Shown: positions 31,512-44,145 of the stretch, piece after piece
How the letters are laid out: each line of letters begins with the position of its first letter
Numbering within the stretch: the stretch's first letter is position 1
Assembly: GCA_965215185.1 (NCBI GenBank)
Contig: OZ244034.1
Location: 2,304,001-2,368,000 of the forward strand
Origin: Acidimicrobiia bacterium
Lineage (GTDB): Bacteria > Actinomycetota > Acidimicrobiia > Spongiisociales > ZC4RG35
Reading direction: 5' to 3'
Length of the DNA: 64,000 nucleotides
Program-made: the position numbers and the translations under genes
The notes under the pieces: generated by a model
Databases searched by the model: none
The model's input: the letters and a program-made list of their open reading frames with translations, nothing else
Told to the model about the DNA's origin: nothing

Positions 31512-34499
31512 TTACTGGCATTGTGCCGGGGTACTGTCCTTTTGGGACACCGCGAGGACGTATGTGCCCTTGAAGCCGCCTTGGGAGTTGATCTTGACGT
31601 AGTGCGAACCGGTGCCTGCTGCGGTGAACTCCAACCTCGCGTCATTTCCCGGGCCGCTGTCTAAATCGTGGGAATCGTCTATCCGGCCTCCGCCCTTGGA
31701 ATGGAGACGGCCGGCGGTTTCGTAGGCGCCGTGCAGCGCCGTGTCATCAGGGTCGACGTAGATGCCGAGCAGCTCCGGATCCGGCAACGTTGCAGTGCCG
31801 GAGCTGAGCCCGCGTACTTCGAGCACATACGTCTCCCCGGCGATGAGTTCGACGCGTATCCAGTCGATGTCCCACGACGGGTCGATTCTCGCTCGCGTCG
31901 GGTCGCCGAAGCAACTGCCGACTTCCACCGACGCGGAGGTGCTGAAATCGGGAACCGGGTCGTTTGCCTGCGGTGACGTGCTTGCCATCAAGAACATCGA
32001 CTTCAACGAATGGGTGCCGGGTGACTGAACGCGTACGTAGTAGATGCCTGAGGGGACCACGGCATTCACGTATTCCTCGACGTTCGACTCATTTGTGCTC
32101 GAGGCGAGAACCGCCAGCGTCGAGTCGGACTGTGGCTGCTCGAGGAACACATCTGCATCACGGGAGATGTCCAACAAGACGGCCGCGACGAATCGTTCTC
32201 GTGTCAACGTAAACTTGAAATAGTTCGATCCAGAACTCAGCCAGTCATGCCACACGAGGCTCAGAGCGCCCTGCGTGGTCATATCTCCAAGGTCAAGCGC
32301 GCCGACGGGTCCCGCAGCATCGTCATCGGCCACCGTTGCCGACACTTGCGCCGACAGCCCAGCATAGTTCGCGTCAGCCGATGTCGCGGTCGCTGTCACC
32401 GACACCGTCTCGAACGCATCGTCGTTGTCGTCGACACCGGCAACCGTGACGGTCTGGGCCGTGCCCCATGTCGCCGAGGTGAAGACCAGCAGCGCCCCGT
32501 CGCTCACCCTCAACGCCCCGCTGTCACCCGAGGACACCACAACGACGACATCCGCCGACGGGGCAGTGGAGAGTCTCACCGAGAACTCCCCGGTGCCCAT
32601 CTCGCCCACGCGCATCTGCGTGGCGTCCACCACCAACCCGGAATGATCGTCGTCTTCGACATCGACCTCCAACTCCACGCGTGTCTCGTCGTAGGCAGCA
32701 TCGGTGGACGAAGCCACCGCTGTGACGGTCACGTTGTCATCGTCAGCATCGTCGTCGTCGACACCGGCAACCGTGACGGTCTGGGCCGTGCCCCATGTCG
32801 CCGAGGTGAAGACCAGCAGCGCCCCGTCGCTCACCCTCAACGCCCCGCTGTCACCCGAGGACACCACAACGACGACATCCGCCGACGGGGCAGTGGAGAG
32901 TCTCACCGAGAACTCCCCGGTGCCCATCTCGCCCACGCGCATCTGCGTGGCGTCCACCACCAACCCGGAATGATCGTCGTCTTCGACATCGACCTCCAAC
33001 TCCACGCGTGTCTCGTCGTAGGCAGCATCGGTGGACGAAGCCACCGCTGTGACGGTCACGTTGTCATCGTCAGCATCGTCGTCGTCGACACCGGCAACCG
33101 TGACGGTCTGGGCCGTGCCCCATGTCGCCGAGGTGAAGACCAGCAGCGCCCCGTCGCTCACCCTCAACGCCCCGCTGTCACCCGAGGACACCACAACGAC
33201 GACATCCGCCGACGGGGCAGTGGAGAGTCTCACCGAGAACTCCCCGGTGCCCATCTCGCCCACGCGCATCTGCGTGGCGTCCACCACCAACCCGGAATGA
33301 TCGTCGTCTTCGACATCGACCTCCAACTCCACGCGTGTCTCGTCGTAGGCAGCATCGGTGGACGAAGCCACCGCTGTGACGGTCACGTTGTCATCGTCAG
33401 CATCGTCGTCGTCGACACCGGCAACCGTGACGGTCTGGGCCGTGCCCCATGTCGCCGAGGTGAAGACCAGCAGCGCCCCGTCGCTCACCCTCAACGCCCC
33501 GCTGTCACCCGAGGACACCACAACGACGACATCCGCCGACGGGGCAGTGGAGAGTCTCACCGAGAACTCCCCGGTGCCTGCCTCGCCCACGTTCAGGCCG
33601 GTAGGCACGGCAAGGAGTCCCGCAGCTTCCCTGCTGCCTCCGCCGCCTCCTCCGCCTCCTCCTCCGCCGCTTCCGCTTCCGCCGCTTCCGCCGCTTCCGC
33701 CTCCTCCGCCGCTTCCGCTTCCGCCGCTTCCGCCGCTTCCGCCTCCTCCGCTTCCGCCGCTTCCGCTTCCGCCTCCTCCGCCTCCGATGGAGTCGTCGCT
33801 GCCGGGGCTTTCTTCCGAGGGTTCCAATTCCAAGGCGCGTGCGAGGAACGTGGCCATCTCTGCTCTGGTAACAGCTTGGTCCGGGCAGAACATGGTGTCT
33901 TCGCATCCTTTGGTGATACCCGAAGCGGCGAGCTTGGCGACACTTGCCGCGTACCAAGCGTCGGAAGGCACGTCGCTGAAACCAGGGTCGGGTCCTTCAT
34001 CCAGACCGAAAGCCCGCGACAGGAAGGCAGCCATCTCGGCGCGGGTCGTAGTCCGATCGGGGCAGAAGACACTGCCGTCCCCGCATCCCTTGGTGACGCC
34101 AAGTACTGCCAGGCGCTCAACGAAAGCTACGTGAGGATGCGCCGCGTCCACGTCCCCAAAGCGCCTTGACGCAGCCGGCCAGGGGTCCGCTCCGTCCAGG
34201 ACGCGAACAGTCCACACCGCCACCGTCGCGCGATCTATGTCATCCCCGGGGCAGAACCCCTCATCGCACTCAGTGCCCACAAACACCCCGGCGGCGGCAA
34301 GAGTGCTGACCGGCTCCGCGTAGTAGGTGTCCGGGGGAACATCCGAATACGGCGCACCGTCCTGCGCCACGGCCACCGACGTTGCTGCCCCCAGTACCGC
34401 AGCCACCATGGCCACAACAGCCAACCCCCAAACCACCCCAACACGAACGCCACTCAACCACAACCGCACTAAAACGAACCCCCACCGAGGCCGACACAA
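31512..34499 (-). CDS. SLH-domain surface protein with Gly/Ser linker, four Ig/Calx-beta-like repeats and C-terminal PPC-like domains (start uncertain)
   Basis: Signal peptide, YSDVP/FSDVP..TRAEMA SLH repeats, VRLSTAPSADV..FTSATWGTAQTVTVAGVDD repeats, DIDWIRVELIAGETY. Confidence 0.85.
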   Translation of the reverse strand: MCRPRWGFVLVRLWLSGVRVGVVWGLAVVAMVAAVLGAATSVAVAQDGAPYSDVPPDTYYAEPVSTLAAAGVFVGTECDEGFCPGDDIDRATVAVWTVRVLDGADPWPAASRRFGDVDAAHPHVAFVERLAVLGVTKGCGDGSVFCPDRTTTRAEMAAFLSRAFGLDEGPDPGFSDVPSDAWYAASVAKLAASGITKGCEDTMFCPDQAVTRAEMATFLARALELEPSEESPGSDDSIGGGGGGSGSGGSGGGGSGGSGGSGSGGGGGSGGSGGSGSGGGGGGGGGGGSREAAGLLAVPTGLNVGEAGTGEFSVRLSTAPSADVVVVVSSGDSGALRVSDGALLVFTSATWGTAQTVTVAGVDDDDADDDNVTVTAVASSTDAAYDETRVELEVDVEDDDHSGLVVDATQMRVGEMGTGEFSVRLSTAPSADVVVVVSSGDSGALRVSDGALLVFTSATWGTAQTVTVAGVDDDDADDDNVTVTAVASSTDAAYDETRVELEVDVEDDDHSGLVVDATQMRVGEMGTGEFSVRLSTAPSADVVVVVSSGDSGALRVSDGALLVFTSATWGTAQTVTVAGVDDDDADDDNVTVTAVASSTDAAYDETRVELEVDVEDDDHSGLVVDATQMRVGEMGTGEFSVRLSTAPSADVVVVVSSGDSGALRVSDGALLVFTSATWGTAQTVTVAGVDDNDDAFETVSVTATATSADANYAGLSAQVSATVADDDAAGPVGALDLGDMTTQGALSLVWHDWLSSGSNYFKFTLTRERFVAAVLLDISRDADVFLEQPQSDSTLAVLASSTNESNVEEYVNAVVPSGIYYVRVQSPGTHSLKSMFLMASTSPQANDPVPDFSTSASVEVGSCFGDPTRARIDPSWDIDWIRVELIAGETYVLEVRGLSSGTATLPDPELLGIYVDPDDTALHGAYETAGRLHSKGGGRIDDSHDLDSGPGNDARLEFTAAGTGSHYVKINSQGGFKGTYVLAVSQKDSTPAQCQ
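32420..33577. repeat. Tandem 327-bp intragenic repeats (about 3.5 units, essentially identical)
   Basis: Identical ORFs recur at 32704, 33031 and 33358. Confidence 0.95.
33637..33786. repeat. Low-complexity CCG/CCT/CTT repeat encoding a Gly-Ser linker
   Basis: Direct inspection. Confidence 0.9.
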
Positions 34500-34656
34500 T
34501 TACTACAGATACAACTCATTTACAGAGCAGAAGTTAGCACTTTATACTCGGCGCTCTCATTTTTACCTCACAATCGCCTTATAAATATAACACAGCGGGG
34601 CAGCGTCCCATTGACGTGGTGGGAATGATCCTTACCGCAGGATTGGATGGTATCTC

Positions 34657-34980
34657 GTGAGGACCGTCATGCGTCGGCTGGCAAGACTGGTGTGCTGGGT
34701 TCTGCTGTGTTTCGTGTTAGCAGAAGGCGGTGCTGCGGCGGGGACTGCTGTTGGTGCAAGAGTGGCTTTATTCGCGGTTCCTTCAATGAACGTATGCGAT
34801 CGCACACCAGCAGTTCGCGACACGATCGTCGCCGCGGTCGCCGGAATCGACGATTGCCAGGATGTGACCGAGGCGCACCTCTCCGGAATCGGAAGGTCTC
34901 TCATCCTGAGACGCATGGGCATCACGGCTCTTAGGGTTGGAGACTTCGACGGTCTGACCTCTCTGAGGAGATTGACGTTG
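34657..34980 (+). pseudogene. Secreted leucine-rich-repeat protein, N-terminal fragment
   Basis: Signal peptide; VCDRTPAVRDTIV..CQDVTEAHL cap; ITALRVGDFDGLTSLRRLTL. Confidence 0.7.
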
Positions 34981-35172
34981 CCCGACCGCTATCGGCCCGT
35001 TCTATTCGCCATGCCTGGCTGACAGACATTATTCATCAGATCCACCAGCGGTCACGGGGCACGTATGGGGCGCTGCGGGTGCATGCCGAACTGCGGTTGG
35101 GTCATGGAATCTCGTAGGACACAACGCGGTGGCGATGCTGATGCCCAGGAGCCGGCCTGGCCGGTCTCAGTA
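34981..35172 (+). mobile_element. IS3 orfB fragment
   Basis: Nucleotide similarity to 29340-29532. Confidence 0.8.
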
Positions 35173-35174
35173 GG

Positions 35175-35461
35175 TGACCGACGGCCCATTGATGATCACC
35201 CCGAAGACGACAGCACCTTCGTAGCTTCTTACATGATCTCCGATCCGGAAGGAACCACCACCGCCACCATGTTGACCGGCACCGACCGAGACGACCTGCA
35301 AATCACCAACACTGGACAGCTCAGTTTCCAGGAAATCCCCGACTATGAAAACCCCACCGATTCCAACCGCGACAACACCTACCAGGTAACAATCGAAACC
35401 ACCGCCGGCAGCCACACCACCCGCCACAACCTCACCGTGAAAGTCACCAACCAAGACGAAC
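35175..35461 (+). pseudogene. Cadherin-like repeat fragment
   Basis: SDPEG..GQLSF..PDYENPTDSNRDNTYQVTI..VKVTNQDEP. Confidence 0.7.
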
Positions 35462-35696
35462 CTGAGGTTCCCCCGGTTTGGCGGACTGTTTTGGTTGGTG
35501 TTCATGCCACCAGTTGTTGTTGGTGGCGGTAGTTTACGGGGCTTTGTTGGTTGTTGTAGGAGTGTCTCCTTTCGGGGTTGTACCAGCCTTCGATGTACTC
35601 GAAGATTGCCAGGCCCTGCTGGTGGCGGGTCTCCCATTTCTGGCGGTCCAGCAGTTCTGTTTGGAGGGTGGCGAAGAACGATTCCACGACGGCGTT
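35462..35696 (-). mobile_element. IS3 3' fragment with terminal IR
   Basis: NAVVESFFATLQTELL..IFEYIEGWYNPERRHS; end TGAGGTTCCCCCGGTTTGGCGGA. Confidence 0.8.
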
Positions 35697-36355
35697 GACG
35701 CCCCTATAGTCAAATTTTGGGTTTAGGGGGTGGTGTGTTGTCGGGTTTTGTGGTCGGTCATGACGCGTTGGTAGACCTCGCGGGCGAGGAAGCGTTTCAG
35801 GCAGCGGATGATGTCCTTTTTTGAGAGGCCCTGGGCGGTGCGACGAGCGACGTAGTCGATGGTGGGCTAGTGGAATCGCATTCGTACTATCGCTACTCGG
35901 TACAGCGCCGCGTTGGCTTGACGGTGCCCGCCTCTGTATAGACGATGCCTGTTGGTCTGTGCGGAGGAAGCCGGAATCGGACACGTGCCACAGAGTTTGG
36001 CGAATGCGGCCTCGGAACGGATCCGTTCGGGGTTGTCACCGAACACGATGAGAAGCTCCGCCGCGGAATCGGCTCCGATGCCAAAGCCGTCTCGCAGTGT
36101 TGGGGAGGCTTGGGCGGTGAGGTCGTCGAGCACGGTGTCGTGGGAGCGGATCTCGGTGTCGAGGTGGAGCCAGCGGCGTGCTAGTGCTCTTGAGTGAGTA
36201 CTTGGCGGAGGCTGTGGGGGTGTTGATCACCGAGACCCGAAAGCGTGCGCAACGGTTGATGAGCGCTTTGTTAGAAAGCCCATCGAGGGATTCGCGCAGC
36301 TCGGCCGGGGTGTTGACGATGATTGCCTTGAGGGTGATGATCGCCGAGGTTCGGC
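35697..36355 (-). mobile_element. IS110 element F (subfamily 2), C-terminal half with stops plus right end
   Basis: GIGADSAA..GDNPERIRSEAAFA..PASS..RHRL..RQANAAL; right end TTTGACTATAGGGGCGTC. Confidence 0.85.
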
Positions 36356-36790
36356 GAGCCTGTATACATGTCTGTGTGAGGTGGGTTCTTTATTGCTGTG
36401 GCTGGTGTGAGAGCCGGTCCGAGAGGAGAGTGTTTTGATGCCTATTGAACATGATGTGACGGAGGCGGCTGTGGTGGCTGCTGGTGTGGTGTCTGATGAG
36501 GTGGTGGAGGCGGTGGTTTCGGACGCTGCTGCTGGTGGTGTGGACCTTCTGGGTCCTGATGGGGTGTTGGCTGAGTTGACGAAGCGGATTCTGGAACGTG
36601 CTTTGGCTGAGGAGATGACCGATCATCTGGGCTATGAGTCCGGTGATCCGATGGGTCATGGTACGGGTAAGAACCGTAACGGGTCCTCTCCCAAACAGGT
36701 GCTGACTAAAGATCGGCGCGGTGGATTTGGACATTCCACGGGACCGTAACGCTACGTTCGAACCGAGGATCGTTCCCAAGGGCGCCCGGC
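36356..36790 (+). mobile_element. IS256-family left end and transposase N-terminal fragment
   Basis: End GAGCCTGTATACATGTCTGTGTGA; LLGPDGVLAELTKRILERALAEEMTDHLGY..RNG; PRDRNATFEP. Confidence 0.85.
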
Positions 36791-37230
36791 GCCGTAGCTG
36801 CCGGTGCCTTCCACCCCAACCCGCACCACACGACCCTGGGATCTCAACCAGCCGCCCAGTTCCTCAAAGCCGGTTGCATCGGCCGGGAACGGAGCGGTTC
36901 CCAGGACTCGACCGGCGGTGTCCACTACCGCCGCGACATGACAATCGCGATGGGTGTCCACCCCGCCAAACACCTCAACCAGGCTCTCTTTTTGTGACAT
37001 GAATGTCTTCTTCTTCCTTGGATAGACTCGCGGGTATCACCGGACCGGAAGCGGTGGACAGAACACTCATGATGGTGTGGAGAAGCAAGGCTCCTATAAG
37101 GTCACATCCGCTCCCGGGTCGGGGAGTGTCCCCAGGCCGAAAGCAGGCCGACAGATCATGATAAGGCACAAACGGCCAGTTTGTCAAGGGGTCAGACCCG
37201 CCCCGACCAGGGACCCCACCATTATCGAGT
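36786..37230 (-). mobile_element. IS110 element D (subfamily 2): left end plus recombinase N-terminal fragment (start 37000)
   Basis: GGVDTHRD, VEGTGSYGAG. Confidence 0.85.
37045..37215 (-). ncRNA. Putative bridge RNA of IS110 D (bounds approximate)
   Basis: Non-coding left end with scaffold shared with 41154-41290; guide-like segments match flank and element ends. Confidence 0.65.
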
Positions 37231-37587
37231 GTTTTGCAAATCGCTTTTCGGGGGTGGGGGTTGTTTGAGCTTTTTGGTGGGGTGGTTTGGGGTTGGGGCG
37301 AGTTCTGGGGGTTTAGTGGGGGGTTTTCCAGTAGCCGGTAGAGGTGGCGGGCGATGTACCGTTTGAGGCAGCGTCGTGCTTCGCGGGTGGTTTTTCCTTG
37401 GCTGATGCGTTTGGCTATGTAGGCCTGGGTTTTGGGACAGTGGCGGGTGCGGGTGATGGCCATGTTGTGGAGCGCGCGGTTGAGTTGGCGGTCACCGCGT
37501 CGGTTGAGTCGGTGGCGGGTGCGTTGCCCTGAGGAGGCTTGGAGGGGTGCTACGCCGGCTAGCCGAGCGAAGGCGGCTTCGTTACGG

Positions 37588-37766
37588 CAGCGGCAGCGTC
37601 CGAAACCACCGCCTCCACCACCTCATCAGACACCACACCAGCAGCCACCACAGCCGCCTCCGTCACATCATGTTCAACAGGCATCACAACACTCTCCTTT
37701 CGGGCCGGCTCTCACACCAGCCACAGCAATAGAGAACCCACCTCACACAGACATGTATACAGGCTC
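37588..37766 (-). mobile_element. Second IS256 left end, inverted relative to 36356-36533
   Basis: About 180-bp near-identical inverted copy. Confidence 0.9.
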
Positions 37767-38249
37767 GGTTTGAGCGCCTCGGCGGACGGTTTCCAGTACC
37801 CGCAGGGCTTCTCGGTCTCCCCGAGCGCGGGGAGCCGAAAGCCGGGAGCGTCCCAGCGCCTGGCGGGCGGCTCGTCGAGCGTCCAACGCGTCGGTTTTGG
37901 CGCCGTCGCGGGTCGGGTGGGGATGGCCGAACTCTATTACCCATTCACCAGCCTCAGAAAGGTAGTCGGTGACTCCTGCTCCGTAGCTACCGGTTCCTTC
38001 CACCACCCACGCTCGTTCCGCGGATGTGTGCTGGTTTGTCCACTCCAACAGTTGAGCATATCCCATGCTGGTTGTCCCAAAGCGCGCAGATGTCAACTCT
38101 CCGGTGGTGGCAGTGTCCACTACCGAAGCGGTGATCCAGTCACGGTCAGGGCCTATTCCTATCGTATGTTTTACCATCTCGGCTAGCATCGTATTTGTTC
38201 CTCTTTTCTGGTGTTACCGGTTAGAGCTGGCGTACCCCCGAGGAGCGGC

Positions 38250-38450
38250 AACCGTTACGGCAGACCTGTGATGGGTCACACCCATTTGGGTGGACAGGCT
38301 TCTGATCAGGCCAGCAACGAAGCACCCAGGCGGGCGCAGCGAAGGGTGTCGGACACATCGATTTGAAGACACGGACCGGTCGGTAAAGACAGAAACGGTC
38401 AGGGTTTTGGAGGGTCACGACACCACCGCTGCGCCTAGCCTGGCAGACTC
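38250..38450 (-). ncRNA. Putative bridge RNA of IS110 A (bounds approximate)
   Basis: Scaffold homologous to 39780-39960, with differences concentrated in two short guide segments. Confidence 0.7.
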
Positions 38451-38462
38451 TGAGAGCACCCC

Positions 38463-39698
38463 CTACATACTCACAGGGTTTGGTGCGGTGAGCCATTGGT
38501 GGTATCGGGTGGCGAGTTGGTGGTTGTGGTAGAGGCCTCGTTCGAGTTGTGAGAGGCGGTTTGGGTGGGCGTGGACGGCTGTGGCGGCCTGAGCGAGAGT
38601 GGTCCGGGTTTTTTGGCGTAAACAGCGTAGATCGGCGCCGTTGGGTGTTGAGGGTGGGTCGGTCAACAGTCGGTAGACCTGGCGGGCGATGTGGCGTTTC
38701 AGACAGCGGATGATCTCTCGGCGGGTTTTGCCTTCCGCCCGGCGTTTTTCGACGTATTCGATGGTGGTCTGGTCGCAGCGCATCCGAGTGGTGGCGATCC
38801 GCCACAAAGCGTTGTTGGCTTGGCGGTCGCCACCGCGGTTGAGGCGATGGCGCACAGGTCCTGAGGATGCCTGGACGGGACTGGCGCCGCACAACGCCGC
38901 GAAGGAAGCTTCCGATCTCATGCGTTCGGGGTTGTCACCAGCTGCGACCAATAAGGCGGCGGCGGTGTCCGGGCCGATCCCTGTGGTGGCCAACAGCGCC
39001 GGGTTGGCCCGGGCGCAGAGATCTTTGATCCGGGTGTCGAGTTCTCCGATCTCTGCGGTGAGGGTCTGGTATCTGCGGGCCAAGAGACGGAGGACATGTT
39101 TGGCGTAGGTGATGGTGGTGTCACCATCACCCGGACGAAAACCGGCACAGACCTTCCCGCGGGCTTTGGGGGAGAGCCCCCGAAGTTGGTGTTTGACCTG
39201 GTCGGGAGCAGTGACCACCAGGGCGTGCAGCTGGTTGATGGCCTGGGTACGGGCCTTGATCGCCGAACGGTGGGCCACTGTCAGCATCCGTATTGCTTCT
39301 ACTGGTCCGTTCCCGCTTTTGGGCAACCCGGTGGCCTGCCCGTTCAAAGCAGCCCGCGCCGCTGCCCGGGCGTCTGTGACATCGGTCTTGCCGAAGCGGC
39401 GGCGTAACTGGCGGTTGGGCCGGTTCACTTCCACCACCTCAACACCAATGCTCATAAGGTGGCGGGTCAGGCCGGCGCCGTAGCTGCCGGTGCCCTCCAC
39501 CCCGACCCGCACAACACGACCCAGGGACCCCAACCAGTTGTTCAACCGTTCATAACCGGCGACATCGGCCCGAAACGGCGCCGAGCCAAGGACCCGACCG
39601 GTGGCATCCACCACCGCCGCGACATGGGTATCACGGTGGGTGTCGACCCCACCAAACACAATCCGATCATCCTCTGACATATGCATCTTCTCCTTCAA
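38463..39698 (-). CDS. IS110 recombinase of element C (subfamily 2) with C-terminal XRE-like HTH
   Basis: DEDD: GVDTH, VEGTGSYG, KTDVTDA; Tnp ASSG; tail LRCLRQK..TLAQAA..LSQLERG. Confidence 0.92.
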   Translation of the reverse strand: MKEKMHMSEDDRIVFGGVDTHRDTHVAAVVDATGRVLGSAPFRADVAGYERLNNWLGSLGRVVRVGVEGTGSYGAGLTRHLMSIGVEVVEVNRPNRQLRRRFGKTDVTDARAAARAALNGQATGLPKSGNGPVEAIRMLTVAHRSAIKARTQAINQLHALVVTAPDQVKHQLRGLSPKARGKVCAGFRPGDGDTTITYAKHVLRLLARRYQTLTAEIGELDTRIKDLCARANPALLATTGIGPDTAAALLVAAGDNPERMRSEASFAALCGASPVQASSGPVRHRLNRGGDRQANNALWRIATTRMRCDQTTIEYVEKRRAEGKTRREIIRCLKRHIARQVYRLLTDPPSTPNGADLRCLRQKTRTTLAQAATAVHAHPNRLSQLERGLYHNHQLATRYHQWLTAPNPVSM

Positions 39699-39753
39699 AG
39701 GTAGAATTCGTTTCTGTTCTCTCTGACCCGAAAAAACGGTGGACAGACCACTC

Positions 39754-41153
39754 TGTGAGTATTGGGGGGGCCTTGTAGAGGCTGCCAGGATTGGCGTCAG
39801 CGGTGGTGTCGTGACCCGAGACCACTCTGACCTTTGTGTCTTTGCCGTGATATGTCCGACACCGCCGCGACGCCCCTGGGCGTTCCGTTGCTGGCCTGAT
39901 CAGAAGCTTGTCCACCCATGGGGTGTGACTCATCACAGTCCTGCCGTCACGGTTTGCGCCTTGTGAGGCACTAGCCCAGTTCGCACAAGAAAGAGAAGGT
40001 TTCTTATGTTGGCCACAATGGTAGAGCATGTGATCGGGATCGATCCTGATCGTGACCGGGTCACCGCCGCGGTAGTAGACACTTCCACCACCGGAGAACA
40101 AGCGACTGCGGTGTTCGGAACCACCCGGCTGGGATATGACCGGTTGTTGAAATGGGCAGACCAGCACACTCAGACGGCTGAGCGGGTGTGGTCGGTGGAA
40201 GGCTCGGGCAGTTACGGAGCAGGCGTGACCACCTATCTCGCTGCCCGAGGTGAACTAGTGGTGGAGTTCAACGATCCCACCCCTACCCGCGACGGCGCCA
40301 AAACCGACGCACTGGACGCTCGGCGGGCCGCTCGCCAGGTGCTGGGCCGTCCTTGGCCATCTGTCCCGCGGGCTAGGGGAGACCGCGAAGCCTTGCGAGT
40401 GTTGGAGACCACCCGCCAGGGCGCCCAAGGGGCCAGAGTATCGGCCATCAACCAGCTAAAAGCCCTGGTAGTGACCGCGCCAGTCGATCTTCGGGACCAA
40501 CTCCGAGGTCTGAGCACAACTGCTCTGGTGGCCAAGTGCGCGGCGTTTCGAATCCGACCCGCCTCCGTCAACGAACTGACCGCCACCAAACAAGCCCTAC
40601 GTTCTACAGCCAGACGCATCCGCAACCTCAACAATGAAATAGCAGAGCTGAAAACGCCCATCGCCGAAATGGTCACAGCCGCAGCTCCGCAACTGCTCGA
40701 CCAATTCGGGATTGGTCCGGTCACCGCCGCCCAAGTGTTCATCGCCTGGTCCCACCCAGGCCGATGCCGCAACGAGGCCGCGTTCGCTCGCCTGGCCGGC
40801 GTAGCACCCCTCCAAGCCTCCTCTGGACAACAAACCCGCCACCGGCTAAGCCGCTACGGCGACCGCCAACTCAACCGCGCCCTCCACACCATCGCTATCA
40901 CCCGCGCTCGGGACTGCCCCAAAACCCGGGCCTACATCGCCAAACGCATCAGCCAAGGAAAAACCACCCGAGAAGCCCGCCGCTGCCTCAAACGGTACAT
41001 CGCCCGCCACCTCTACCGACTCCTACAAAACCCGCCCCCAACCCCGGCCGAACCAGCCCCACCGTTCCACTCGGAAACGCCGCAACACCCCCACAAGCTC
41101 AAACATCCTCAAATCCCCGCCAAAAGCCTCGATTTGGAGAACATAGAAGCATC
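39754..41153 (+). mobile_element. IS110 element B (subfamily 1), apparently complete
   Basis: Left end TGTGAGTA shared with element A; right end CATAGAAGCATC; TC present at both junctions. Confidence 0.85.
39780..39960 (+). ncRNA. Putative bridge RNA of IS110 B (bounds approximate)
   Basis: Segments in LTG-RTG-LDG-RDG order match the left flank (AGACCACTC), right flank (TCAC), right end (AGAAGC) and left end (CTGTGA). Confidence 0.75.
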
Positions 41154-41292
41154 ACATGGCAAGAGCAAGGCTCCTATCAGGTCACAGCCGCCCTGTCGGG
41201 AGAGCACCGCCCCCAGGCCGGAAGCAGGCCGACAGATCACCACAAAGGCACAACAGCCAGGTCGGAGTCGAGTCAGACCCGCCCCGGCCTAG
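40006..41292 (+). CDS. IS110 recombinase of element B (ORF reads past the element right end)
   Basis: GIDPD, VEGSGSYG, AKTDALDA, ASSG, RQLNRALH. Confidence 0.92.
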   Translation: MLATMVEHVIGIDPDRDRVTAAVVDTSTTGEQATAVFGTTRLGYDRLLKWADQHTQTAERVWSVEGSGSYGAGVTTYLAARGELVVEFNDPTPTRDGAKTDALDARRAARQVLGRPWPSVPRARGDREALRVLETTRQGAQGARVSAINQLKALVVTAPVDLRDQLRGLSTTALVAKCAAFRIRPASVNELTATKQALRSTARRIRNLNNEIAELKTPIAEMVTAAAPQLLDQFGIGPVTAAQVFIAWSHPGRCRNEAAFARLAGVAPLQASSGQQTRHRLSRYGDRQLNRALHTIAITRARDCPKTRAYIAKRISQGKTTREARRCLKRYIARHLYRLLQNPPPTPAEPAPPFHSETPQHPHKLKHPQIPAKSLDLENIEASHGKSKAPIRSQPPCRESTAPRPEAGRQITTKAQQPGRSRVRPAPA

Positions 41293-41312
41293 GGGCACCT
41301 ATAAGTATGAGT
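41154..41312 (-). ncRNA. Left end / putative bridge RNA of IS110 C, separated from its ORF by element B
   Basis: Joining 39737-39753 to 41154 onward restores a sequence collinear with 37052-37215. Confidence 0.7.
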
Positions 41313-41845
41313 GGTTGGAGTCGACGTGGACGGGCGTAAACATGTGCTGGGGGTATGGCTGGGCGACGGCGGTGAAGGCGCCAAATACTGGTTGTCGGTA
41401 CTTACCGAGATACGCAACCGAGGCCTCGAAGACGCGCTGATCGTGTGCTGTGACGGCCTGAAAGGGCTCCCGGACGCGATCGAGGCGACATGGCCCCAGG
41501 CGCTGGTGCAGACCTGTGTGATCCACCTGCTGCGAGCCTCTATGCGGCTCTGCAGTTGGAAAGACCGAAAAACCATTGTGGCGGGCTTGCGACGCGTTTA
41601 CACCGCGGTAAACGCCGAAGCCGCTGTTGAGGCGTTGGACGAGCTCGAGGAACAATGGGGAAATCACTATCCCGGCGTTATACGAATATGGCGCCAGGCG
41701 TGGGAAGAGTTCACCCCGTTCCTGCGGTTCCCGCCAGAGCTTCGCAAGGTCGTGTACACAACCAACGTCGTCGAAAGCGTCCACTATCAACTACGGAAAG
41801 TCACCAAAACCAGGGGGCATTTCCCCACCGACCAATCCGCCCTCG
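41313..41845 (+). mobile_element. IS256 transposase internal fragment
   Basis: GRKHVLGVW, RNRG..CDGLKGL, QTCVIHLLR, YTTNVVES. Confidence 0.9.
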
Positions 41846-41953
41846 CACTTGGATCGCGCCTCGCCCAACAGCATCCAAATGCTGGGGCCGAGCGAGTTGA
41901 TATCGGTGGCCTTGAAAGTGATCCACGGGTGGGACTTCAGATAGGAGCGCACA
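41846..41953 (-). pseudogene. Possible Fic-family protein N-terminal fragment
   Basis: SHPWITF..IWMLLGEARSKCE recalled from Fic protein N-termini. Confidence 0.45.
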
Positions 41954-42069
41954 AGTGCCGCTCTACTATCGGTATATTGTTTTGACCATTCTGATGTCCA
42001 ACTTGTTGTCCAGTAAAGAGACAGTGCAGTCAAGAGGTTTGCGGGAGTTCCCCCGCGTTCTAGTCGGGG

Positions 42070-43614
42070 CTAAGCCTCCGTCTGGAACTTGGCTTTCTCT
42101 GCGTCTCGGAGCCATCTTTTCATTACTTTGCCGGAGTCGTTGCGGACTAGGGCATCTACTACTTCGAAGTGTTTGGGGACTTTGAATTTGCCGAGGTTGG
42201 CGCGGCAGTGGGCGGTTAGTTCTTCTTCGGTGACGGTCATGCCGGGGAGGGCCACCACGAAGGCTTTGGGTACTTCGTCCCAACGCTCATCGGGCACTCC
42301 CACCACTGCTGTCTCGCTAACTGCCGGGTGTCTGGCCAGCACCCGCTCAATTTCGGCGCTTGCCACGTTTTCTCCGCCGCTTTTGATCATGTCCTTCTTG
42401 CGGTCCACAAACCACATATAGCCCTCGGCGTCGATGCGGCAGATGTCGCCTGAGTGGAACCATCCGTCGCGGAAGGCGGCGGCGGTCTCGTCAGGATCGT
42501 TCCAGTAACCCGGCGACACTTTGGGTCCACGGGCGACTAACTCTCCGGGCTCCCCGGGCGGCACCGGTCGGCCTTCGTCGTCCACTATCCGAAGATCTAT
42601 GTTGGCAAAGGGCCTTCCCACAGATCCTATTTTCTCGGGAGGGGGGTTGGCCTCCAGGTAGGCGGCGCCGTTGGTGAGTTCGGTCATCCCATACGCCTCT
42701 GACAACCGCACGTGCGGCAGGGTCTCCTGGAAACGGCGATAGACCGGCGCCGGCAGCCCTCCGAAGATGATCCACTTCAGAGAAGACAGGTCGTACTGAT
42801 GGCGGTCTTCCATCCTCATGATGTCGTGGATGATCTGAGCGGCCAGCACCCCTCCCGCCACCTTCTCCTTCGCCACCAGCTTCACGATCTCCCGGCCCGC
42901 ATAGCTGTGGACGATCACCAGCGTCGCTCCTATGTAAAGAGCAGTGAGTCCTGGGACATCCAGTCCGCTGACGTGAAATAGCGGCGCCGAAAGCATGATC
43001 CGGTCACTAGGAACCAGTTCCATTTCCAGAATCTGACCCACCTGATTCCAGATCACGTTTCCGTGGGTGGTGATCACCCCTTTGGGATGGCTGGTGGTAC
43101 CCGACGTGTAAAGAATCCGGGCCAGATCATCCAGCCCCATCTGGGCGTCAGGCACCTCTGCCCCGGCGGCGGCAGCCATCAATTCCTCGTAAACGTGCCA
43201 GCCGGCTGGGCCTTGGCCGGCATGGACGATGACGTGCCGGATGTCTGGAGAAGAAGCGAGCGTCTCTTGGGCTTTGTCGTGGAACCGTTGATCGACCACC
43301 AGTCCCACCGCTCCGGAATGGTTGAGGATGTAGGTCAACTCCCGAGGGTGAAGGCGCCAGTTGAGGGGGATAAAGGCCGCTCCGATCCGGTTGATGGCCA
43401 GGATCTCGATCAGGTAGTGATAGGAGTTGTCGGCCAGGATGGCGATGATGTCTCCCCTCCCATACCCCAGGTCCAAGAGCGCCTGGGCCATTTCGCTGAC
43501 CGCCGCGTCCAGTTGCCGGTAGGTAAGCCGGACCTCTCCATCAACCACGGCCTCCTTGTCTCCGAAGCGGTGCTTGTTGCGTTCCAGCAGGCGGCTCAGA
43601 TTGGCGGTGGGCAT
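42070..43614 (-). CDS. Acyl-CoA synthetase
   Basis: YTSGTTSHPKG, EAYGMTE, HSGD, SGKVMK; paralog of 14040-15605. Confidence 0.95.
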   Translation of the reverse strand: MPTANLSRLLERNKHRFGDKEAVVDGEVRLTYRQLDAAVSEMAQALLDLGYGRGDIIAILADNSYHYLIEILAINRIGAAFIPLNWRLHPRELTYILNHSGAVGLVVDQRFHDKAQETLASSPDIRHVIVHAGQGPAGWHVYEELMAAAAGAEVPDAQMGLDDLARILYTSGTTSHPKGVITTHGNVIWNQVGQILEMELVPSDRIMLSAPLFHVSGLDVPGLTALYIGATLVIVHSYAGREIVKLVAKEKVAGGVLAAQIIHDIMRMEDRHQYDLSSLKWIIFGGLPAPVYRRFQETLPHVRLSEAYGMTELTNGAAYLEANPPPEKIGSVGRPFANIDLRIVDDEGRPVPPGEPGELVARGPKVSPGYWNDPDETAAAFRDGWFHSGDICRIDAEGYMWFVDRKKDMIKSGGENVASAEIERVLARHPAVSETAVVGVPDERWDEVPKAFVVALPGMTVTEEELTAHCRANLGKFKVPKHFEVVDALVRNDSGKVMKRWLRDAEKAKFQTEA

Positions 43615-43638
43615 GGCTGGTTTGTCCTCTGGTTGGGC

Positions 43639-44145
43639 CTAAGTGTCTTTGGCGTGCTTACTACGGTAGGCCAGAATCTCGGCCCGGGTGGGAAGAGCTA
43701 CGAATTCCAACAGATAACCGTCGGGATCCTTGGCAATAAAGGATCGGATCACCCCGTAGTTCTCGAGTTCCACAGCCAGGGGCTCGCAAAGAAACTCAGC
43801 ACCGGCCTCTTGCGCCCGACGGTACTGATCGTCAATCGTGTCGCCCTCTTTGATTTCAAACGACATGAGAAACCCGCCCAGGTCCTTCATCCCTCCCGGC
43901 CTGGTTCCCGGCGTGAGTCCATCATCCCATTCGATTAGTTCGATCTGGCCCAATTTCGACGGACCTTGCAGGAACACCGAGCGCCCGGTGGTGCCGGGGG
44001 GAAGCGCCAGGAACTTCTCCACGTCTTCTCCCTCCTGTTTCATCCTCAAAGTCGGCCGGTAGCCCAAGACCTGTTGATAGAACGCCACCGAGCGGTCCAA
44101 ATCGGTCACCGGCAAGGCGACATGGTGAATCTCGCTGACGCTCAT
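43639..44145 (-). CDS. VOC/glyoxalase family protein
   Basis: HHVALPVTDLDRSVAFY, DPDGYLLEF; paralog of 22125-22652. Confidence 0.88.
   Translation of the reverse strand: MSVSEIHHVALPVTDLDRSVAFYQQVLGYRPTLRMKQEGEDVEKFLALPPGTTGRSVFLQGPSKLGQIELIEWDDGLTPGTRPGGMKDLGGFLMSFEIKEGDTIDDQYRRAQEAGAEFLCEPLAVELENYGVIRSFIAKDPDGYLLEFVALPTRAEILAYRSKHAKDT

Follow-up and report, generated by a model that had tools for sequence, protein, structure and literature searches.

The closest described relative of the system reported here is IS621 of Escherichia coli, an IS110-family insertion sequence (IS) whose bridge RNA architecture and handshake guides are set out in two studies (Durrant et al., 2024, PMC11208160; Hiraizumi et al., 2024, PMC11208158). 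As far as the parts of these studies that deal with architecture go, the IS621 bridge RNA is laid out as a stem, a left guide, a stem-loop and a right guide, and this order occurs twice. The window analysed here is a stretch of 64,000 nucleotides (G000:C1:2304001-2368000) from the closed, single-contig genome of 3.12 Mb of an Acidimicrobiia bacterium, referred to below as the source genome (G000). Within it, an IS110-family element of 1400 bp, element B, lies inside the non-coding left end of a second IS110 element, element C. With a probability of about 0.8, B is guided by a bridge RNA and has inserted at the donor-loop segment of C, a target that its sub-lineage would use regularly but not exclusively.

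As far as the published descriptions of IS621 extend, element B and its relatives share with it a recombinase with DEDD and Tnp domains, a left-end non-coding RNA in which the target loop precedes the donor loop, and left guides that read as the top strand. Candidate right guides, which would be complementary to the top strand and carry extra bases that fit a handshake role, and a candidate promoter split across the junction of right end and left end may be further points of likeness. In contrast to IS621, the donor core is TC, and many targets (CC, AC, GC) agree with it at the second base alone; the recombinases are also longer (about 395-411 amino acids). The natural target of IS621 is a repetitive extragenic palindromic (REP) element, whereas the natural target here, known from sequence alone, is the left end of another IS110.

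Muller, Lauf and Herrmann reportedly described in 2001 that IS1383 targets the inverted repeats of IS1384. IS1383 would thus resemble the present elements as an IS110-family element with a specific target in another insertion sequence; the terminal repeat that it targets belongs to an element from a different family, whereas the targets here are parts of another IS110 (its guide-RNA gene, junction promoter or recombinase gene) and are used in both directions. IS4321 and IS5075 are said to insert into the ends of Tn21, and they too would be members of the IS1111/IS110 group that home into, and disable, a conserved functional end of another mobile element. They differ in that they are of the IS1111 group, whose RNA is encoded on the downstream side of the gene, and that their host is a Tn3-family transposon. 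ISPpu9, ISPpu10 and other REP-targeting IS110 elements, so far as the accounts of them extend, likewise use a conserved, multi-copy, host-neutral target; unlike the targets here, their repeats are host intergenic elements and not mobile elements. Part of a 2026 preprint deals with repeated insertion and tandem growth at IS110 loci. A keyword search of open-access text, with supplementary target tables (e.g., that of PMC11208160) lying outside it, returned no published IS110 guide aimed at the bridge-RNA region of another IS110, and no reciprocal network of such guides. The presence of IS110-group elements in other mobile elements is already known, and what appears new in form is a guide aimed at an IS110 guide-RNA gene.

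Element B and its predicted bridge RNA

Element B shows the traits of the IS110 group, namely a long non-coding end (252 bases upstream of the gene), termini without inverted repeats, and insertion that is specific for a site with a short core. The dinucleotide TC flanks it on both sides, at 39752-39753 in the flank and at 41152-41153 as the last two bases of B itself. Judged by their domain content, the frames of B and C (Table 1) are IS110 recombinases: they match the N-terminal DEDD RuvC-like transposase domain PF01548 with 49 and 87 bits, respectively (cut-off 29), the C-terminal Transposase_20 domain PF02371 with 67.9 and 67.7 bits, and the NCBIfam model NF033542, 'IS110 family RNA-guided transposase', with 172 and 193.5 bits (cut-off 140). 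The two proteins are 46% identical and both conserve a QASSG stretch.

The B frame has no stop codon inside the element and consequently runs 46 codons into the left end of C (41154-41292). In a circular form of B, the frame would stop eight codons further on, in B's own left end, and C-type frames likewise extend near their right end. A 98.6% identical copy, B2, lies at 1665808-1667204 of the source genome; its frame is broken by a 1-base deletion at element position 1030, which leaves the copy in the window (B1) as the only open-frame copy of its sub-lineage in this genome. Computed joining of the right and left ends of B gives TTGGAG-17-GAGTAT, with GAGTAT (39757-39762) as a candidate -10 box, and the corresponding C-type join gives TTGACA-17-CATACT; both are matches to the promoter at consensus level only.

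The fold of the left end was derived from 20 B-type left ends from 12 genomes, with B1, A, B3 and B6 taken from the source genome and 16 from eleven others. RNAalifold gives a target-binding loop in which an outer stem surrounds an internal loop; the 5' side of this loop is a hypervariable segment that follows GTGACCC and, after a three-pair inner stem, the 3' side consists of a second hypervariable segment and an invariant GAT. Across the stems of this loop (18 + 3 pairs, with compensatory changes in four), 97.5% of cells are paired in the 20 left ends, and pairing falls to 35-53% in controls with slid partners. Compensatory cells number 21, versus 6.6 +/- 2.7 in shuffles, none of 500 of which reached the observed value.

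A second module appears in 17 of the 20 single-sequence folds and is composed of an outer stem, a 5' side CAGAAGCUU, a hairpin GUCCACCC...GGGUGUGAC and a 3' side UCAUCACA. Its outer stem occurs as CCGU/ACGG and as CCGC/GCGG, an exchange seen by eye and uncounted on the alignment. Each donor guide corresponds to one of the termini of B itself, as is typical of IS621: AGAAGC at 39903-39908 equals the right-end bases 41145-41150, and TCACAG lies at 39933-39938, with TCACA pairing with the element's first bases, TGTGA, in all 20 sequences. By this folding, the left end of B has the IS621-type two-loop layout with the target loop first. The sequence-only reading had proposed, from the letters alone, the order of left target, right target, left donor and right donor guides, and this order is recovered within the conserved fold of the 20 left ends, where the matching segments fall in internal loops. 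Compared with the 19 other aligned left ends, the B-type relic A carries about 25 extra bases in the inner stem-loop of its target loop (38330-38400).

Table 1. Features of the nested insertion sequences in the window; guides, stems and loops are predictions.
Feature	Position	Strand	Remarks
Element B, IS110-family insertion sequence	39754..41153	+	1400 bp
B target-binding loop	39793..39874	+	RNAalifold on 20 left ends; guide-flank covariation
B target-loop outer stem	39793-39811 paired with 39857-39874		
B left target guide	39818-39827		GAGACCACTC
B right target guide with handshake bases	39844-39851		GCCGTGAT
B donor-binding loop	39880..39952	+	5' boundary 39880 approximate
B left donor guide	39901-39909		CAGAAGCTT
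B donor-loop inner hairpin	39910-39929		
B right donor guide	39930-39938		TCATCACAG
B donor-loop outer stem, 3' strand	39943-39952		
B recombinase frame	40006..41292	+	428 amino acids as listed
B right-end terminus	41134..41153	+	-35-like hexamer TTGGAG (41134-41139)
Element C, outer 159 bases of left end	41154..41312	-	
C left-end start	41298-41312		ACTCATACTTATAGG
C target-loop stem	41272-41285		
C left target guide	41260-41270		CGACTCCGACC
C right target guide region	41231-41243		
C donor-loop 5' stem	41181-41193		
C left donor guide	41169-41178		GATAGGAGCC
Element C, remainder	38476..39753	-	
C remaining right donor guide TGAGTG with handshake bases	39745-39753		GAGTGGTCT
C donor-loop 3' stem	39737-39744		
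C recombinase frame	38463-39698	-	
Element A, B-type relic in C's right end	37231..38475	-	
A left target guide	38402-38411		TCCAAAACCC
Element D, decayed C-type relic in A's right end	36786..37230	-	
D uninterrupted left end	37003-37230		
D left target guide	37179-37187		TTGACAAAC
D intact donor-loop segment	37060-37070		ATGAGTGTTCT
IS256-family (Mutator-type) transposase gene, 3' part; target of C	41313..41985	+	Pfam PF00872 Transposase_mut, E = 1.5e-54
IS256-family element fragments	36355-36793 and 37588-37770		

Landing site of B in element C

When 39754-41153 is excised in silico, the left end of C becomes collinear with that of element D (37003-37230) and with seven further intact C-type left ends, which bears out the proposal that B interrupts the non-coding left end of C. 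C-type left ends share the two-module plan of B. Their second module has two recognisable guides. One is GAUAGGAGCC, in which ATAGGAGC equals the right-end terminus ...ATAGGAGCATC; the other, UGAGUG (TGAGTG), is invariant in all nine aligned C-type copies and complements C-ACTCA, that is, the second core base and the first bases of the left end. The bases after UGAGUG (GG/GU, then U/C) complement the target core and the last base of the left flank, and would fit a handshake guide. The aligned C-type left ends place B after base 159, between U and GAGUGG of the right donor guide. On this alignment and fold, the insertion point is in the donor-binding module of C, between its two donor guides, as the sequence-only reading had it.

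Metagenome contigs from two public runs connect 39751 directly with 41152 and lack exactly the 1400 bases in between, the joint being ambiguous by 2 bases. This joint may represent the empty-site form, to which it lends weak support, because each run provides a single contig and the shorter sides measure 24 and 28 bases.

The left target guide of C matches its own flank, 41313-41323, at 10 of 11 positions. Among 12 C-type copies, the ungapped agreement of left guide and flank, out of nine, is 9, 9, 9, 8, 7, 6, 6, 5, 4, 3, 3 and 3, a mean of 6.0 versus 4.25 that was reached in none of 10,000 permutations. The low-scoring copies match at eight of eight positions after a 1-base register shift made by eye. 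A left-end terminus of C at 41300-41305 was considered and dropped, as more copies put the terminus at 41312.

It had also been claimed that the insertion immobilises C despite its intact recombinase, a claim that this locus makes moot. The right end of C is independently truncated by A at position 1476 of the 1510-bp reference copy, with loss of the last 34 bases. Sibling C-type copies carry the same donor guides as C, and the IS621 bridge RNA acts in trans, according to the portion of the work that concerns it (PMC11208160). As C is cut by A, and as siblings could supply RNA in trans, immobilisation is unreadable from this locus.

B-type copies always lie antisense to their C-type host (39818-39827 versus 39745-39753, minus strand). 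Owing to this orientation, the left target guide of B is the exact RNA complement, over nine bases, of the right donor guide of C with its handshake bases, and the bridge RNAs of B and C could pair and interfere directly.

Agreement of guides with flanks

The left flank of B, AGACCACTC at 39745-39753, is found identically inside B at 39819-39827. As this 9-mer has 39 copies in the 3.12-Mb genome, a single guide-flank match is unremarkable on its own. Among B-type copies, the first variable segment follows the left flank copy by copy. Over ten ungapped bases, the left guide agrees with the left flank at nine positions in B1 (nine of nine for AGACCACTC), B2 and B5, at eight in B3, and at seven in B4, B6, B7 and A; in other genomes, agreement is 10/10 in L004 and L020 and 9/10 in L003. 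Over 37 rows, mean identity is 6.05/10 for cognate and 3.28 for non-cognate pairs, a result that none of 10,000 permutations reached; this figure is no probability, given that related copies are not independent. The 37 rows retain nine false pairs (eight chance hits to the anchor motif and the truncated B8), which bias against the covariation result. The B-type segment has the character of an IS621-type left target guide, in that it has the top-strand sequence of the flank, core included, and changes together with the flank.

The right target guide had been taken to be GTGA. GTGA does lie at 39847-39850, within the variable segment GCCGTGAT, and it is this longer segment, placed where a right target guide would be expected, that would correspond to the guide. 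The segment is the same in B1 and B2 and is the reverse complement of A-TC-ACGGC, which looks like the final base of the right end followed by the core and the right flank, as expected of a right target guide with a handshake base. It agrees with the site of B2 (TC-ACGGG) at six of seven positions; elsewhere, the right guide agrees through TCACG in L003 and at four of five positions at each of two sites in genome G200. The full complement, TC-ACGG, occurs at the chromosomal site of B2 and in the donor loops of the C-type copies c4, c6 and c9. All the strings on which the sequence-only reading was built (at 39745-39753, 39819-39827 and 39847-39850, together with AGAAGC, TCACAG and the TC core) hold.

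Across the junctions read, the second base (C) is the only core base common to donor and target. In cases where the cores differ, the left junction retains the first core base of the target (C, A or G) and the right junction, where readable, retains the T of the donor. This pattern is unlike the CT/CT of IS621 and hints at the position of strand exchange.

Recurrence of the junction and competing explanations

The junction, defined as the 3' part of a C-type donor loop followed by a B-type left-end start, was searched for in 401 genomes sampled across the order. It occurs seven times, in five genomes of two bacterial families, and a reversed control pattern gave no occurrence. The carriers are the source genome (twice, B1 and B7, with B8 as an unrelated near-match), G003, G033, G191 and G200 (twice). 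In G200, two B copies that are 99.6% identical sit in clearly different host left ends, with both flanks differing, and these near-identical inserts in differing hosts point to two recent, independent events. Their left guides agree with the flanks at nine and eight of ten positions, and for the ACGGT expected from the right guide the two sites have AAGGT and AGGGT.

Of seven genome sites read that differ by no more than one base from the 13-mer AGACCACTCACGG specified by the two guides of B, three are C-type donor loops (c4, c6 and c9). The recurrence of the junction and the independent events in G200 support the claim that B is programmed against C-type donor loops. As originally put, with the donor guide of C as the target, this claim stands for the left guide, which agrees at nine of nine positions, and for the recurrent junction; it falls short for the right guide, which fits only the core and two bases. 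The survey of other B-type copies gave a divided outcome, with several guides matching parts of IS110 elements and six copies lying outside any recognisable IS. It is concluded from these junctions and guides that the B sub-lineage probably uses the donor-loop segment of C/D-type elements regularly, and non-exclusively, as a target.

Several observations weigh against this conclusion. At the site of B1 itself (TC-ACATGG), GCCGTGAT fits by GTGAT only, that is, the last right-end base, the core and two bases. The near-perfect C-type donor-loop sites in c4, c6 and c9 are empty, as are 34 other exact sites of the 9-mer. B2, with guides identical to those of B, occupies a unique site in the chromosome, with agreement at 12 of 13 bases, and B2, B3, B6, B8, L002 and L015, with the same or nearly the same guides, lie outside any recognisable IS. 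The inner structure of the C donor loop is less clear than that of B, with RNAalifold placing part of the left donor guide in a small hairpin. A scan of 34000-44000 against Rfam, at E values up to 1, matched no family, although the presence of a bridge-RNA model in Rfam 15 is uncertain. The RNA run X20 yielded one contig only, 40570-40748, which falls in the recombinase gene and is uninformative on the bridge RNA. Among the pieces listed for runs X1, X5, X6 and X20, no contig piece crosses either junction of B.

In the most probable rival explanation, the insertion is an incidental, off-target half-match, the B1/B2 lineage being aimed at ordinary chromosomal sequence with no special tie to IS110 donor loops. 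The unique site of B2 fits both guides better than the site in C does, the 9-mer is present 39 times in the genome, and half-match insertion is described for IS621 in the relevant part of a preprint (bioRxiv 10.64898/2026.08.31.748434). Because the right guide fits little beyond the core, the event in the window indeed looks like a half-match insertion, with a perfect left half and a weak right half. An incidental origin is nonetheless improbable. There are seven junctions in five genomes and two families, including the two independent events in G200; the right guide of B is perfectly complementary to the donor-loop variant that c4, c6 and c9 carry; and the right guide in G200 fits both host sites at four of five positions.

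Much less likely still is a single ancient composite of B in C, since copied or inherited, such that the recurrence reflects descent. B7 and its host differ from B1 and C to similar degrees (84% and 83% identity), and kin genomes are not independent, as such a history would have it. The inserts in G200 speak against it, being 99.6% identical in hosts whose flanks differ on both sides. So do B1 and L003, which are 82% identical as elements and each keep a guide-flank match of nine of nine; each has a near-identical twin elsewhere in its own genome, and their C-type hosts lie at different genomic places. An assembly artefact, in which repeats were collapsed or mis-joined, is suggested by the dense nest of repeats and the lack of a listed contig piece over either junction, and is very unlikely because the genome is closed in one 3.12-Mb contig, the junctions have exact IS110 anatomy (core on both sides, guide match) and equivalent junctions occur in four other assemblies.

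Proposed mechanism and choice of target

For the bridge-RNA-guided insertion of B at the C donor-loop segment, the following course may be proposed. By reference to work on IS621, B would excise as a circle, and its joined ends would form a promoter. The left end would be transcribed into a bridge RNA, used as in IS621, in which the left guide of the target loop corresponds to AGACCAC-TC, present on the antisense strand of the C/D-type donor-loop region (GAGTGGTCT). Pairing of recombinase and RNA with both the donor junction and AGACCAC-TC-AC.. would be followed by strand exchange at the TC core. The bridge-RNA gene of C would thereby be split between its two donor guides, which would disable C's own RNA.

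The likeliest reason for the choice of target is that it offers a conserved, multi-copy, host-neutral site, since donor-guide segments, the -35 box of a promoter and catalytic-motif codons are the most constrained parts of a multi-copy element that is dispensable to the host. Selected hostility between elements, the parasitism of the sequence-only reading, is also possible.

The nest and the settings of other IS110 copies

Element B is part of a nest of insertion sequences at 36355-41985. Read from right to left, C entered an IS256-family gene, of which an intact copy lies near 2506 kb of the genome, and B entered the left end of C; A entered the right end of C, and D that of A. Element A is itself broken at 37588-37770 by an IS256-family fragment. 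Misassembly of the B/C junction is unlikely, because the assembly is one closed contig and the same junction is found in four other genomes.

In the source genome, 22 left junctions are readable, ten B-type and 12 C-type, and ten of the 22 lie inside other B- or C-type IS110 DNA. In the whole genome, such DNA amounts to 27,796 bp (0.89%), which gives a binomial probability of 2e-15 for copies that are related to one another. B1 and B7 lie in C-type donor loops, B4 in C-type recombinase codons, and B5 and A in the right ends of C-type elements; c3 and c10 interrupt two B-type recombinase genes at position 1123; and c7, D and D2 lie in the right-end motif CGATTTGACAA, the site of D2 reading GATTTGACAA. 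The copies c3 and c10 are near-identical, whereas their two B-type host genes are only about 76% alike.

Four further junctions fall in transposase genes of other insertion sequences: C in the IS256-family gene, c4 in an HTH_Tnp_1 gene (IS3-type orfA) with 14 genomic copies, c9 in a DDE_Tnp_ISL3 gene, and c6 in an ISL3 transposase gene, assigned through a flank 92.5% identical to that of c9. Of the remaining eight, B6 lies on the downstream side of a phage-type integrase gene, B8 interrupts a dehydrogenase gene and c2 a PD40-repeat gene; B2 and B3 are in unique DNA with no class given, and B9, c5 and c8 in settings without a class. A Pfam search with the short flank translations of c5 and B3 gave no match. 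The C-type copies lie at about 374, 909, 980, 1006, 1096, 1097, 1099, 2341, 2345, 2398, 3013 and 3103 kb, and nine of the 12 are in other insertion sequences (five IS110, one IS256-family, one HTH_Tnp_1 and two ISL3), such that the C-type acts as an 'IS hunter'. A third type of IS110 recombinase gene, about 35% identical to those of B and C, is present in three copies (984078-985106, 1647211-1648239 and 2652789-2653817). The donor-loop break in c7 (~909 kb) was considered as a third B insertion in this genome and rejected, because only 14 bases of a B-type right-end terminus are present; it is a remnant only.

The same kinds of nesting are seen in other genomes of the genus, with L006 resembling B4 and L012 resembling c3, and the guide of L004 agrees at ten of ten positions with the first 25 bases of a C-type left end. 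Among other genomes of the genus, 11 of 16 carry a B-type left end, as does one of 24 genomes searched from other genera. The exact junction pattern for the reverse nesting, a C-type element in a B-type recombinase gene, is present in one of the 401 genomes, the source genome, in two copies; L012, from genome G009, has a diverged flank, and G009 is outside that sample.

The right-end motif GATTTGAC contains the -35-like box of the junction promoter. B-type copies of the GATTTGAC class lie in recognisable IS110 right ends in the cases of B5, L018 and L011; other copies lie in unclassifiable sequence (L010, L021, L025) or have a repeated flank (L008, L009 and siblings). With settings this mixed, no claim is made that the whole class targets IS110 ends. 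D, D2, c7, B5 and B9, together with many B-types in other genomes, have guides that spell the form CGATTTGAC(AA) of the right-end motif as their target (window positions 37179-37187 and 37231-37250; source genome positions 981096, 228671, 1097483 and 909140; loci L008-L025).

Two loci have more complex structures. At L002:2680-2920 (genome G002), a B-type gene breaks off at element position 1240, where a C-type donor loop in reverse orientation follows, joined exactly at ACTCAT; this hexamer mimics a C-type left-end start, and the joint may be a product of half-site recombination. At B5, the 8-mer AATTTGAC occurs on both sides of the element (978220-978266 and 981097-981130 of the source genome) and a second B-type right-end terminus lies just upstream, a tandem form that is not explained by one simple insertion.

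The nesting in both directions raises a wider reading, in which two IS110 sub-families of the genus form a reciprocal RNA-guided network, with guides selected against each other's indispensable, conserved parts. It draws on the B-types in the donor-guide segment, on the match of GATTTGAC by D-type and many B-type guides, and on the placement of B-types and C-types each in conserved recombinase codons of the other. At present this reading is tentative and rather unlikely to be correct.

Significance for the IS110 family

Bridge RNAs are known for guiding IS110 elements to host repeats, and here a guide points at the guide-RNA gene of another IS110. More broadly, most IS110 copies of the source genome reside within other insertion sequences. 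These junctions also offer natural evidence on the tolerance of half-sites and on a core of which only the second base is common to donor and target. If the targeting is selected, it would represent a natural RNA-programmed conflict, or the use of safe harbours, between mobile elements, and it would reveal which IS110 parts are kept from escaping by constraint, besides supplying natural pairs of orthogonal recombinase-RNA systems whose targets are known. If the reciprocal network is true, it would amount to hyperparasitism or an arms race among insertion sequences.

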